Shown here: positions 2,929-8,682 of the stretch, in pieces | How positions within the stretch are numbered: position 1 is the stretch's first letter | Layout of the letters: every line of letters starts with the position of its first letter | UHGV virus genome: UHGV-1667981 | Length of the DNA stretch: 18,367 nucleotides | Strand: one strand, 5' to 3' | From: a virus | The notes under the pieces: model-generated | What the model was told of the DNA's origin: nothing | Database searches by the model: none | The model's input: only the letters and a program-made list of their open reading frames with translations | Made by a program: the position numbers and the translations under genes

Positions 2929-3018
2929 CGCGGGTGGGCTTTAGGTTCAGCCTATAGCTCTGGCATGGGTTGACCGCAGGACAAGCTGCAACTTGTCCTG
3001 CGCCCACTTTTCAGGCAC

Positions 3019-3040
3019 AAAAAAACCGCCATAAAGGCGG
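3019..3040 (-). terminator. Intrinsic terminator (minus strand): 5-bp GC stem CCGCC/GGCGG with 5-nt loop followed by U7
   Basis: Plus strand 3019-3040 is aaaaaaa-ccgcc-ataaa-ggcgg; on the minus strand this is a hairpin followed by 7 T. Lies between the small upstream minus-strand genes and the methylase-lysis block. Confidence 0.5.
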
Positions 3041-3127
3041 CTTGTTGGCTGTTGGGTACAAAAAACCCAACTTAACAAAACAATAACTAAAAACCGTCAT
3101 TTTGCCAAGCTTTTTCGTTTTTGTGCT

Positions 3128-3145
3128 GTGCGACCGTGGTCGCAC
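3128..3145. repeat. 18-bp palindrome GTGCGACC-GT-GGTCGCAC (copy 1 of 3); candidate SopB/ParB-type centromere site
   Basis: Perfect 8-bp inverted arms with 2-bp spacer; arms extend to 11 bp here (3125..3148). Same 18-mer recurs at 7507..7524 and, with 7-bp arms, at 9950..9965. Resembles the F-plasmid sopC core TGGGACC-AC-GGTCCCA as recalled. Confidence 0.5.
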
Positions 3146-3150
3146 AGCTT

Positions 3151-3378
3151 TTAGAAAGTTGCCTGCTTATATTCATCGGTCAAAGAATATCGACCAGATC
3201 CGCTACGCTTTGCAACCCCAAAACAGATCATCTGTTCGATGATAAATTCAACGGCAGCTTGACTCAAAAAACAGGCTTCGCTTAACTCTTTCAGGGAAAT
3301 GTGTGGGTATCCACGCATAACACATTCCACACTCAGGGCCGCTTCAGTCATATTTCCACGAATTTCATTAATATTCAT
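3151..3378 (-). CDS. Hypothetical small protein (75 aa)
   Basis: ORF track 3151..3378(-); no recognisable motif. Positioned upstream of the hairpin-rich control region. Confidence 0.45.
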   Translation of the reverse strand: MNINEIRGNMTEAALSVECVMRGYPHISLKELSEACFLSQAAVEFIIEQMICFGVAKRSGSGRYSLTDEYKQATF

Positions 3379-3391
3379 AACGCCTCTCTAA

Positions 3392-3613
3392 TCAATCTTG
3401 AAACTGGAAATCAACATCAGCCATAAAGCGGTTCAACTCAGCCAGTTTTGGCCCCATAGTCCCAACTAAGCGACCAGCCAGTCGGTCTGTTAGGTTGGTA
3501 CTGTTGAAACCATATTCCTTTTCGAAACGTTCAACCTTCTGCCACAACTCATACAGTTCGTTAGCTATCTCCGCAACGTCGCCGCGCATTTTTTCGTTAC
3601 CTTGATAATTCAT
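3392..3613 (-). CDS. Hypothetical small protein (73 aa from second Met)
   Basis: ORF 3392..3631(-); the in-frame ATG at 3613 is preceded by GGAGGG with a 4-nt spacer, so the shorter start is favoured. No recognisable domain. Confidence 0.5.
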   Translation of the reverse strand: MNYQGNEKMRGDVAEIANELYELWQKVERFEKEYGFNSTNLTDRLAGRLVGTMGPKLAELNRFMADVDFQFQD

Positions 3614-3778
3614 AATACCCTCCAAATTCATATAGTTAGTGGGTTATTGCCCCTCAATGACACGAACTGTAACTCTGCCAAACGAACACATCCAGTGTTA
3701 TTTTTCGCTTTTTAATGAAATTTTTAATTTGCGTTGTTTTCTTGTTTTGGTGTATTTTATGGATGTGGAGGCTATAAT

Positions 3779-4090
3779 ATGTTTAACGTGATAACCCACC
3801 CTGCAGCACTGGATGAACTGCTTGAACTACCAGATGATTTGCGAGGTCGCATGGCCAGATTAATTGAGCGACTGGAGAAAGAAGGCAACAAACTGAAGAT
3901 GCCCCATAGCCGTGTAATAGGTGGAGGGCTTTTTGAACTACGAGTAGGGGATAAAAACATCGCAAGAACGCTGTACGCCTACGCGACTGGTAACGAAATT
4001 TATCTATTGCATGCATTTGTAAAAAAGACACAGAAAACACCGGTGAAGGCTATCGAAATCGCCAGAACTCGCCTGAAGGAGATGAACTGA
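3779..4090 (+). CDS. Type II toxin, RelE/ParE superfamily, HigB-like (Gp49-like)
   Basis: ORF 3734..4090(+); favoured start ATG 3779 with GGAGG SD 8 nt upstream. Motifs GGGLFELRV and LLHAFVKKTQKTP are recalled as typical of HigB/Gp49-like toxins. Toxin-first order, stop overlaps antitoxin start (TGATG). Confidence 0.8.
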   Translation: MFNVITHPAALDELLELPDDLRGRMARLIERLEKEGNKLKMPHSRVIGGGLFELRVGDKNIARTLYAYATGNEIYLLHAFVKKTQKTPVKAIEIARTRLKEMN

Positions 4091-4377
4091 TGAAAGCGAA
4101 AGGCATCCCGTTTAACGAAGTAAAAGAAAAACTCCTCAACACTCCAGAAGCCGTCAAAGGATATGAAGAGGCCGACAAAGAGCTGGAGATGGTCGAAATG
4201 TTATACGAAATGAGGGAAAGAGCAGGTTTAACGAAATCAGCTCTGGCTGAACGAATGGGGTTACGACCGTCAGCCATCAGCCGCCTGGAAAGCAATCCTT
4301 TAGGGGCAAGTATGAAAACTTTGGCTAAATATGCTCATGCCTGCGGCGCAGCCATCGATATTCGCGCTGTTTATTAA
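4090..4377 (+). CDS. HTH (XRE-family) antitoxin, HigA-like
   Basis: ORF 4090..4377(+), 95 aa. Helix-turn-helix segment LTKSALAERMGLRPSAISRLE. AAGGAG SD 8 nt upstream. Translationally coupled to the upstream toxin. Confidence 0.85.
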   Translation: MKAKGIPFNEVKEKLLNTPEAVKGYEEADKELEMVEMLYEMRERAGLTKSALAERMGLRPSAISRLESNPLGASMKTLAKYAHACGAAIDIRAVY

Positions 4378-4393
4378 TTAGACTCTTTTACTA

Positions 4394-4413
4394 CCCCGTC
4401 CAGAAGGGCGGGG
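4394..4413. other. GC-rich hairpin between convergent genes (8-bp stem with one G-U, AGAA loop); possible non-canonical terminator
   Basis: ccccgtcc-agaa-gggcgggg. No U-tract on either side, so not a canonical intrinsic terminator. Confidence 0.3.
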
Positions 4414-4419
4414 TGTGCA

Positions 4420-4623
4420 TCAATGATGTGAACGCTCAACAGCGATAGTTTTCTGACAATGCTGGGCAATCTCTCGCGACATGTTGATGAGTCGTGAAAC
4501 CTCACCAATATGTAGGCTGGCTTCTGGAGAAGCCAGGGTGACGCTAACCAGATCCAGAATGGCGTCAATATCTCTTAAATTTGAATCGAGTTGTTCAAGA
4601 GTTGATACGGCTGCTTCAGACAT
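4420..4623 (-). CDS. Small protein (67 aa) downstream of a LexA box; candidate SOS-inducible antirepressor
   Basis: ORF 4420..4623(-). A CTGT-N8-ACAG LexA box lies 37-56 bp upstream of the start and overlaps a candidate -10. Function is inferred from context only; no sequence family recognised. Confidence 0.5.
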   Translation of the reverse strand: MSEAAVSTLEQLDSNLRDIDAILDLVSVTLASPEASLHIGEVSRLINMSREIAQHCQKTIAVERSHH

Positions 4624-4659
4624 TAAATCTCATACCATTTAACTAAAAAAGGTTGTTTG

Positions 4660-4679
4660 TACTGTATAAAATTACAGGG
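4660..4679. promoter_or_regulatory. LexA (SOS) box tACTGTATAAAATTACAGgg
   Basis: Both CTGT and ACAG half-sites intact with an AT-rich 8-bp spacer; 15/20 matches to the TACTGTATATATATACAGTA consensus by eye. Overlaps a candidate promoter (TTGAGT-17-TACAGT on the minus strand) for the 4420..4623 gene. Confidence 0.6.
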
Positions 4680-4705
4680 TAAAACTCAAACTTTACGGTC
4701 AATTT

Positions 4706-4948
4706 TCAATGAATTAACTGCGTAAACTGCTGTGTGGCCCGATACTTATGCTCTCTCCCTATGCCACGATCAACTTTCTCAAGAAGTCCAGTACGGACAG
4801 CAGAATCAAGCATCCTTTTAACAATTCTGCTATTTAACCCAACATCAAAAGCAAGCATCGAAGCGAAAACAAACCCATCACCACCATCAGAAAAGCTCTT
4901 TTCGCTCCGTTTTCGTATCATTTCAAAAAGCAATGCCTTTTTATCCAT
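4706..4948 (-). CDS. Hypothetical small protein (80 aa), possibly DNA-binding
   Basis: ORF 4706..4948(-). GGAGGG SD 4 nt upstream of ATG, immediately preceded by the CGTGACCAGTCACG palindrome. DNA-binding role is a guess. Confidence 0.5.
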   Translation of the reverse strand: MDKKALLFEMIRKRSEKSFSDGGDGFVFASMLAFDVGLNSRIVKRMLDSAVRTGLLEKVDRGIGREHKYRATQQFTQLIH

Positions 4949-7524: not shown

Positions 7525-7801
7525 CCTCTCTGATTTCCAAGTAACGCTTAATCCAAAGATTTTCTATATGCTTATTACCTGGCTGATTTGATAAATACCA
7601 ATCGGCAATTACAGACTGCTTATTACTATCTGGTCGTGTCCTGTAACCACAAGTTGGACACCAGATAACATATTCATTTCTTACCCCCGAATACCTTAAT
7701 TCTGGCTTCGACGGTTTCCTGAACATAACTTGTTTACAAAGGCAGAATGGCACTTCCTGCCCTATGGCGTTTGATGATTTCACTGCGCTTCTCCGCCGCA
7801 T
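7481..7801 (-). CDS. Hypothetical Cys-rich protein (106 aa), possible zinc ribbon
   Basis: ORF track 7481..7801(-); FCLC...WCPTCGY cysteine pairs. C-terminal codons GCG ACC GTG GTC GCA CAA (ATVVAQ) are the 18-bp palindrome. Overlaps the upstream gene by 68 nt at its 5' end, so the start is uncertain. Confidence 0.4.
   Translation of the reverse strand: MRRRSAVKSSNAIGQEVPFCLCKQVMFRKPSKPELRYSGVRNEYVIWCPTCGYRTRPDSNKQSVIADWYLSNQPGNKHIENLWIKRYLEIREGATVVAQENENNAI
7507..7524. repeat. 18-bp palindrome GTGCGACC-AC-GGTCGCAC (copy 2 of 3, opposite orientation)
   Basis: Exact reverse complement of the 18-mer at 3128..3145. Lies at the overlap junction of two minus-strand ORFs. Confidence 0.5.
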
Positions 7802-8444
7802 TTAATAATGCAGTTCGATTTAAGCTCAGACATCGCGACTTAATTAAAAGCCAGCGTTCTTTATAATCTTGTCTCCAGCTATCAATAGATATATTCAGTA
7901 GAAAACTCAGATGCCTGTCCTGTTCTCTCTCATCAACTGCCTCAGCACACGTAAGTTCTGATTTAACCTGCTGTGCCGCGTAATAAATCAATTTCCGCAT
8001 GGCTTTTTTCGTGGAGGCCTTCATTTTTTTAAAGCCGCCCCCCGAATGAGCAACCAGAAAATCAAGCCATAACCACTGACAAACAATCACATCATTGTTG
8101 TAATCAGGCTTGCATCCGTAGCAATAATAAAGCCAGGCTGATTCCTCGTTATTCAACTGACCAATAGCCCTGCGCCAGCTGGCGCTCTGAAAATCAATAT
8201 CAGTGAGCAACATTGATGATTGTTTAAATGTTTTCCCCTGATGGAATCTAACCGGCTCAGCAGGAACGGACACTTCGTATGAGTTATCATCCCCCACACT
8301 GATTGACCGGACTGGTTTATAGTTAAACCGTCCTGACCTACCGAGACGCATCTGCTCAAGCTGGACCTCCAGAATGCCACCCTGGCGATAATGAACATCA
8401 GCCAATGCCGTAGAGACGCAGCTGCGTATATACTCAAGCTCCAC
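7734..8444 (-). CDS. Hypothetical protein (236 aa); candidate Q-like late regulator by position downstream of cro
   Basis: ORF 7734..8444(-), GTG start preceded by AAGGAG. Several Cys (YYCYGCKPDY). Function is inferred only from synteny with the N15-type immB order (cB, cro, Q) as recalled; no motif-level support. Confidence 0.5.
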   Translation of the reverse strand: MELEYIRSCVSTALADVHYRQGGILEVQLEQMRLGRSGRFNYKPVRSISVGDDNSYEVSVPAEPVRFHQGKTFKQSSMLLTDIDFQSASWRRAIGQLNNEESAWLYYCYGCKPDYNNDVIVCQWLWLDFLVAHSGGGFKKMKASTKKAMRKLIYYAAQQVKSELTCAEAVDEREQDRHLSFLLNISIDSWRQDYKERWLLIKSRCLSLNRTALLNAAEKRSEIIKRHRAGSAILPL

Positions 8445-8655
8445 GCTTACTACTCTCCTTAATCGACTGCTTTACCCGCCGAGTTGTAAAGTCACTCTTC
8501 AGCTTATAAGCAGTACGAACTTCAATATCGCTTTGCCGCAATGAAGGAATCTCTCCAGCGGTTAACCATTGGTAAACAGCTCCGGGTGTTACACCTACCC
8601 CTGCCGCTGCTTTTTCTACACTGCCAAAATGGCGAATAAGTTCTTCTGGTTTCAT
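8434..8655 (-). CDS. Cro-like HTH regulator (divergent from the repressor)
   Basis: ORF 8434..8682(-); first ATG at 8655 gives MKPEELIRHFGSVEKAAAGVGVTPGAVYQWL, an HTH-like segment. Divergent from the CI-like gene across an operator-containing intergenic region. Confidence 0.7.
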   Translation of the reverse strand: MKPEELIRHFGSVEKAAAGVGVTPGAVYQWLTAGEIPSLRQSDIEVRTAYKLKSDFTTRRVKQSIKESSKRGA

Positions 8656-8682
8656 GTTGTTATTATAAACAATAAACAACAA

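Follow-up and report, generated by a model that had tools for sequence, protein, structure and literature searches.

A probable type II toxin-antitoxin operon, orthologous to N15 gp49-gp48 and oriented against its neighbours, in an N15-like linear phage-plasmid

The gp49/gp48 locus of N15, both the founding member and the source of the name of the Pfam family PF05973 ('Gp49'), consists of genes 49 and 48 (312 and 288 nt), which are flanked by genes 47 and 50 and read in the opposite direction to their neighbours. The N15 cassette reportedly stabilised heterologous replicons, and is said to specify a toxin that is bacteriostatic in E. coli and is neutralised by the antitoxin, and to have a separate promoter ahead of each of its two genes. 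In the form in which the original study is relayed by citing papers, gp49-gp48 constitutes a stabilising toxin-antitoxin (TA) system (Dziewit et al. 2007, J Bacteriol 189:1983, cited in PMC2701414, PMC3606827, PMC3581621 and PMC5906591). The gp49 (PF05973) toxins as a group have been described as ribosome-dependent mRNases of the RelE/ParE superfamily, with a toxin-first gene order (PMC11980606).

A number of other characterised systems serve as points of reference for the pair described here. The tad-ata pair of Paracoccus aminophilus pAMI2 and the s045-s044 pair of SXT, each of which is credited with a plasmid-stabilising phenotype, likewise combine a COG4679/DUF891 toxin with an XRE antitoxin in a toxin-first order (PMC2701414, PMC3606827), but they are distant homologues carried by other kinds of element, and are likened to the present pair by description. 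The HigBA systems of Rts1 and E. coli K-12 exhibit the same toxin-first order, a RelE-superfamily toxin, an XRE-HTH antitoxin and a role in plasmid maintenance (PMC11980606), although their toxins are assigned to PF05015 and PF09907, and not to Gp49. HigB1/HigA1 of Mycobacterium tuberculosis (the TAC system) and HigBA of Streptococcus pneumoniae (7nbu, 7awk and 6af3) belong by sequence to the Gp49-type fold family (E = 8e-5 to 0.04); their catalytic positions match those of the present toxin, and cleavage of mRNA in the A site on the ribosome provides the corresponding mechanistic model. The M. tuberculosis system differs, however, in its low sequence identity and in needing a SecB-like chaperone, which is absent from the locus considered here. 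The phd-doc pair of P1 resembles the present pair as an addiction module on a plasmid prophage (PMC7969092), but comprises unrelated proteins, including a Fic/Doc kinase toxin, in an antitoxin-first order on a circular replicon.

The window, by which is meant the entire stretch of 18,367 nucleotides of the virus genome UHGV-1667981 that was analysed, exhibited 97% identity over its whole length to YDC107_1 and PhiR46_1, two Escherichia phages of the genus Ravinvirus, and was found to encode a 1331-aa RepA-type primase and a 639-aa protelomerase. This match, together with the presence of the repA and protelomerase genes, identifies the window at the level of sequence as an N15-like linear phage-plasmid. 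Among 5426 complete E. coli genomes, 16 contained the region, in each case (16/16) on a plasmid of 36–75 kb and never (0) in a chromosome, and one plasmid record exhibited 99.9% identity over window positions 3151–4948.

According to the initial annotation, the pair is inserted on the opposite strand within an array of minus-strand genes and is the sole plus-strand coding unit between 125 and 8700, and this arrangement was borne out by the available coding sequences: all others between window positions ~125 and ~8150, as read from the annotated record of YDC107_1, are on the minus strand, as are the ORFs at 7734–8444 and 8434–8682. The left neighbour of the pair is a gp50-like gene that starts at 3631 on the minus strand, while to the right a gp47-like gene (4420–4623, minus strand, with its stop at 4420; phrog_6301) is convergent with the antitoxin gene. 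A centromere-like site (3125–3148) lies ~480 bp from the pair. N15-like elements possess an active partition system in addition to the TA pair. Elsewhere in the window, two shadow ORFs on the plus strand (412–639 and 596–850), opposite the spanin gene, matched PHROG families of unknown function; neither carries a gene annotation in YDC107_1.

The first gene of the pair extends from 3779 to 4090 on the plus strand (stop codon 4088–4090) and encodes a 103-aa toxin of the Gp49 family. Its start was assigned to ATG 3779 because every homologue begins with MFNVITHP, and because a Shine-Dalgarno sequence, GGAGG (3767–3771, plus strand), is present 7 nt upstream; this motif was invariant in all of the aligned sequences (7/7). 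The start proposed by the ORF lister, TTG 3734, was considered unlikely. The second gene (4090–4377, plus strand; stop codon 4375–4377) encodes an antitoxin of 95 aa with an XRE-type HTH domain at residues ~36–92. The two genes overlap in the sequence TGATG, with a single base common to both, and the toxin-first, stop/start-overlapping organisation initially proposed for this plus-strand unit was thereby upheld.

Profile searches conducted with both proteins likewise supported the proposed combination of a RelE/ParE-superfamily toxin with an XRE-HTH antitoxin. The toxin matched PF05973 (Gp49, DUF891, COG4679) over profile positions 1–90 of 90 with a score of 101 bits (cut-off 23.9 bits; E = 3.4e-29), and phrog_2523 with E = 5e-43. 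Gp49 was the sole family recovered in the Pfam scan of the toxin at E ≤ 0.01, there being no match to PF05015 or PF09907, the families of the Rts1 and E. coli HigB proteins. The antitoxin matched HTH_3 (E = 8.1e-12), HTH_31 (E = 7e-9) and HTH_19 within residues 36–92, each above cut-off, and its best match in the PDB was HigA2 of M. tuberculosis (7ewc). A search of NCBIfam returned no match for the toxin and sub-threshold HTH matches only for the antitoxin. The initial designation of the pair as HigB/HigA-like consequently holds for the gene layout but not for the toxin family, which is Gp49/Tad and not that of HigB from Rts1 or E. coli. A toxin of 100% identity is present in public records, where it bears the RefSeq label "type II toxin-antitoxin system RelE/ParE family toxin".

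Among solved structures, the nearest to the toxin by sequence were 6af3 (HigB of S. pneumoniae, E = 8e-5) and 7nbu (M. tuberculosis HigB1 bound to the ribosome, E = 0.03), and it is from these matches that a BECR/RelE fold is predicted; an AlphaFold2 model built from the toxin sequence alone reached a mean pLDDT of 48, which was insufficient for searching by fold. In the alignment with 7nbu, toxin residues R45, E53, R55 and N60 correspond to K58, E66, R68 and N73 of HigB(TAC), and F80, K82, Q85 and K86 correspond to F93, K95, Q98 and K99, while R63 is one position off R77. Since these HigB(TAC) residues (K58, E66, R68, N73, R77, F93, K95, Q98 and K99) have been named as those of the catalytic pocket (PMC9098466), the RelE-type catalytic set is, as judged by alignment, intact in the toxin.

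Retention of these residues argues against an explanation in which the HTH protein would act mainly in phage regulation, the pair adjusting the lytic-lysogenic programme instead of functioning as a TA system, with convergent transcription against the early-right operon possibly playing a part. Such a role would accord with the head-on transcription of the pair relative to the operon around it, and also with the RefSeq label of N15 gp48, which is simply that of a transcriptional regulator. However, the same two genes also occur on plasmids outside any phage context, and their replacement by hicAB in some relatives (see below) is more readily reconciled with a TA system than with a dedicated regulator, so that a primarily regulatory function is considered extremely improbable.

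Direct comparison with N15 gave amino-acid identities of 91% for the toxin (gp49) and 85% for the antitoxin (gp48), the alignments being ungapped and the lengths equal (103 and 95 aa). Together with occupation of the same gp47/gp50 slot in the same opposite orientation, these values define the pair, on sequence grounds, as the positional ortholog of N15 gp49/gp48. The two loci are alike in their toxin-first overlap, their neighbours (gp47, gp50 and gp51), their orientation and their linear phage-plasmid host (Ravinvirus), but they differ by ~20–24% at the nucleotide level, nearly all of this divergence being synonymous, and in an upstream inverted repeat that is perfect in N15 and degenerate in the window. 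The pair is already known and annotated, being that of N15 gp49/gp48 (Tad-Ata type); given that the locus is the Pfam namesake, that its N15 ortholog has been published as a stabilising TA system and that the toxin has a RefSeq annotation, it has little discovery value. Only the pattern of TA exchange at the gp47/gp50 slot is to a mild degree new. No specific mention of a Gp49/XRE pair was found in a study of telomere phages (PMC12042878) or in a survey of phage-plasmids (PMC7969092), and a search for published experiments on the window allele found none. For annotation, the pair is of use as a marker of the N15-like linear phage-plasmid character of the window, in which a probable addiction module adjoins the centromere-like site.

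The window genes were 72–86% identical in nucleotide sequence to those of N15 and phiKO2 and to two plasmid copies; in these comparisons, dN/dS values of 0.02–0.04 were obtained for the toxin and 0.06–0.09 for the antitoxin, the synonymous sites being saturated. Such low values at these levels of nucleotide identity are indicative of strong constraint on both proteins, and the coding sequences of both genes accordingly bear the signature of strong purifying selection.

Occupancy of the slot was surveyed in 37 IMG/VR loci anchored on gp50, 36 of which were informative: the Gp49/XRE pair was present in 33/37 and hicAB in 3/37, the one remaining locus (1/37) being cut off by a contig end. An empty gp47/gp50 slot was recorded in none of ~40 relatives (N15, phiKO2, Klebsiella, Enterobacter and the 36 IMG/VR loci). 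Five elements in all carried hicAB in the slot, namely Enterobacter phage MStein-2023a (L003), L026, L028, L031 and a Citrobacter plasmid. In MStein-2023a, part of the gp48 antitoxin (residues 1–60, 73% identity) survives in truncated form alongside hicAB, from which it follows that the gp49-type cassette had been replaced in this element, and had not simply never been present. It might be ventured, as a tentative and unlikely generalisation, that the gp47/gp50 junction is an obligatory 'TA slot' of N15-like telomere phage-plasmids within which two unrelated type II TA families, Gp49/XRE and HicAB, interchange. If true, this would imply selection on TA function as such, and through the head-on orientation against the early-right operon, TA expression (or release of the toxin) could be tied to the maintenance-to-lytic switch, or alternatively to competition with other phages and plasmids.

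Within window positions 3151–4948, only 3702–4379 was also found, at 82–84% nucleotide identity, in non-phage IncF/IncI plasmids such as pSB4_227 and pRHB10-C04_2, where it is surrounded by IS elements. These limits of similarity delineate a mobile cassette on the plus strand, consisting of the regulatory region, toxin gene and antitoxin gene, which includes ~77 bp of DNA upstream of the toxin gene and has its right limit at the stop of the antitoxin gene. The GC content of the cassette is 44%, compared with 41–43% for its flanks and 45.5% for the window. The earlier likening of this organisation to that of a moron was therefore justified in so far as the cassette is small and self-contained, is oriented independently of its surroundings and is also present on IS-rich conjugative plasmids, but not in respect of its GC content, which is like that of the flanks, or of its distribution: comparison of relatives for presence and absence nowhere revealed an empty site, and a sporadic moron was rejected. 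The description "conserved accessory slot" fits better.

The same data bear on whether the cassette is wholly selfish, a hitch-hiker that is hard to lose, moves horizontally and confers no net benefit on the phage-plasmid. Its exact bounding at 3702–4379 in IS-rich regions of unrelated IncF/IncI plasmids is consistent with this explanation, as are the decayed remnants found in ColV/IncF plasmids and the higher nucleotide identity of the window copy to plasmid copies (82–86%) than to N15 (76–80%). Nevertheless, the slot is never empty in relatives from E. coli, Klebsiella and Enterobacter, another TA system being present wherever the pair is missing, and the toxin has retained its 91% identity to N15 next to phage genes that exhibit 82% (gp50), 73% (gp51), and 54% and 68% (the gp47-like genes). 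A cassette devoid of benefit to its phage-plasmid is thus thought very unlikely. The filled slot, the replacement by hicAB and the sharing of the cassette with conjugative plasmids together raise a modest, testable point concerning the vertical inheritance of phage-plasmids. As a separate observation, the antitoxin-only fragments in ColV/IncF plasmids were considered as intact orphan antitoxins of an 'anti-addiction' kind and rejected as such, since ACG stands in place of the ATG start codon and the coding sequence is truncated beside IS30.

The spacer upstream of the toxin gene is AT-rich, with a GC content of 35% over 3632–3778 and 27% over 3695–3778, compared with 45.5% for the whole window. 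The proposal that the pair has its own AT-rich promoter region consequently stood with regard to base composition, but not with regard to a recognisable promoter: a consensus sigma-70 scan detected no site inside 3640–3778, its lone match was at 3609–3636, and the number of matches was not above that in shuffled sequence. A relaxed scan yielded at best ≤8/12 consensus positions. The best promoter candidate is inferred to be TTGCGT-N18-TATTTT (3729–3758, plus strand), which is conserved in all relatives and agrees with the consensus at 7/12 positions, below the scan threshold. The 5' leader, when folded as RNA, was not significantly structured (z = +0.6).

An imperfect inverted repeat, TTTCGC-N6-ATGAAA (3703–3720), marks the left edge of the cassette and is a candidate antitoxin operator. 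A perfect form, TTTCAC-N6-GTGAAA, was present in 27/39 homologous upstream regions, and in two non-phage plasmids a symmetric double change (TTTCAT-N6-ATGAAA) has left the palindrome intact, while several phage copies are altered in one arm only; the degenerate repeat of the window matches at 4/6 positions only. The corresponding repeat is annotated in the N15 record as a putative terminator stem-loop. By analogy with HigA, which autoregulates at palindromes (PMC11980606), we think it more likely that the repeat would serve as an antitoxin operator than as a terminator.

The pair is very probably a functional type II TA operon of the Tad-Ata or Gp49-XRE kind (HigBA-like), as befits an ortholog of N15 gp49-gp48, and the literature on its homologues suggests that toxicity, an mRNase mechanism, plasmid stabilisation and autoregulation should be expected of it. 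The toxin and antitoxin genes would be co-transcribed from the AT-rich upstream region, and the TGATG overlap would couple their translation; the antitoxin would then bind and neutralise the toxin, and its HTH domain would probably repress the operon at the left-edge inverted repeat. In a daughter cell deprived of the linear plasmid prophage, the antitoxin would be expected to decay faster than the toxin, whereupon the freed RelE-like toxin would cleave mRNA at the A site of the ribosome and arrest growth, plasmid-free segregants thereby being removed. Such post-segregational killing, which would keep the linear plasmid prophage in the lineage, is the most likely role of the pair, and the one that fits best with a slot that always holds a type II TA system and with the inheritance of a low-copy linear plasmid. 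The confinement of the region to plasmids (16/16) gives it indirect support. The contribution to phage-plasmid addiction suggested in the initial annotation is therefore regarded as probable, its published support being that for the N15 ortholog as conveyed by citing papers (Dziewit et al. 2007). Deletion of the genes of the related SXT pair did not raise the loss of that element (PMC2654960), and stabilisation of a test plasmid does not for this reason prove a native maintenance role. The active partition system of N15-like elements, the degenerate candidate operator of the window and the failure to detect a consensus promoter also count against the proposed explanation.

It was also suggested initially that the pair could act in defence of the abortive-infection type, a function that is compatible with addiction. 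A competing phage that stopped host transcription or triggered decay of the antitoxin would in this event cause the toxin to halt translation and the infection to be aborted, with a resultant gain in protection for both the lysogen population and the resident phage-plasmid. There is a precedent in a gp49-family HigB of an E. coli toxin-antitoxin-chaperone module that is reported to act in abortive infection (PMC11980606), and a Gp49-like C-terminal domain in the PADLOC NsnC model was matched at residues 43–95 (E = 2.7e-7). An Abi-family gene is present ~670 bp from the cassette in one conjugative plasmid, and the slot is occupied in some relatives by hicAB, another TA pair. Full-length matches to PADLOC models were lacking, however, those obtained being partial-domain or generic HTH matches only. 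Moreover, no SecB-like chaperone gene follows the antitoxin gene, the next gene (4420–4623) being the convergent gp47-like one, and no published phage-defence test of an N15-type pair was found. Defence by abortive infection or against superinfection is accordingly deemed unlikely as the main function, and post-segregational killing is preferred.

The GC-rich hairpin reported to trail the pair was confirmed at 4392–4415, between the convergent antitoxin and gp47-like genes, with a 10-bp stem and a predicted folding energy in a 55-nt fold of −22 kcal/mol as plus-strand RNA (z = −3.3) and −15.9 kcal/mol as minus-strand RNA. The terminator scan did not call it, a U tract being absent after the stem on both strands. 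As regards the autonomous transcription unit that a moron would represent, the AT-rich upstream region does travel with the cassette, but a consensus promoter was not detected and the hairpin has no U tract. The hairpin is located outside the stretch common to the non-phage plasmids and was not seen in 96 nt of aligned N15 sequence, while a similar hairpin is present in the Klebsiella relative KpLi5.

The complete toxin-antitoxin cassette was also located on two non-phage plasmids, pSB4_227 from Shigella boydii (L004) and pRHB10-C04_2 from E. fergusonii (L005), where the copies lay within stretches rich in IS elements; the plasmids are of the IncFIA and IncI types. These copies exhibited amino-acid identities to the window proteins of 94% for the toxin and 88% for the antitoxin, and at the level of nucleotide sequence the window cassette was nearer to them than to its N15 equivalent. 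An Abi-family gene lay ~670 bp from the copy in pRHB10-C04_2.

A dead remnant of the same cassette, carrying no annotation, was found in the ColV plasmid p1ColV5155 (NZ_CP005931.1; L045:1501-1731). The ColV/IncF remnant retained the terminal ~25 nt of toxin coding sequence and ~70 antitoxin codons at 84% identity, the start codon of the antitoxin having been changed from ATG to ACG, and was cut off near IS30 and the tsh gene. Dead remnants were also present in many other ColV/IncF plasmids.

Among phage relatives, the Enterobacter phage MStein-2023a carried hicA-hicB in place of the Gp49/XRE pair in the slot between gp47 and gp50 (L003:1959-2827), and retained a shortened remnant of the gp48 antitoxin in the form of a 63-aa ORF; this truncated remnant is evidence that hicA-hicB supplanted the toxin-antitoxin cassette at a fixed site. 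The same slot was occupied by hicA-hicB, without the Gp49/XRE pair, in three N15-like IMG/VR loci (L026, L028 and L031) and in the N15-like Citrobacter plasmid NZ_CP032182.1.

At a distance of ~480 bp from the toxin-antitoxin pair, and immediately downstream of the gp51-like gene, the window contained a perfect 24-bp palindrome (GCTGTGCGACCACGGTCGCACAGC; 3125-3148), the core of which was identical to the 'putative plasmid partitioning site' of phiKO2 (L006:846-863); the palindrome is probably one of the dispersed centromere sites of the N15 type. Past this palindrome in the minus-strand reading (~3015-3110), there followed a -35-like hexamer (TTGGCA) together with a GC hairpin that carries a T run (GCCGCCTTTATGGCGGTTTTTTT); they match two elements that N15 and phiKO2 have annotated at this position, a 'putative late promoter' and a terminator. 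The segment is presumably the late promoter region, subject to Q antitermination, that precedes the methylase and lysis genes.

At the left end of the window, two plus-strand ORFs matched PHROG families of unknown function (412-639, phrog_17757, E=9e-22; 596-850, phrog_35444, E=9e-20) and lay opposite the minus-strand spanin/lysis gene at 478-957; both are most likely shadow ORFs that records of other phages list as genes. A small minus-strand ORF at 125-436, recorded as hypothetical in the annotated Escherichia phage YDC107_1, gave a partial match to phrog_355, 'nucleoside 2-deoxyribosyltransferase' (E=1e-44; profile positions 76-179 of 249).
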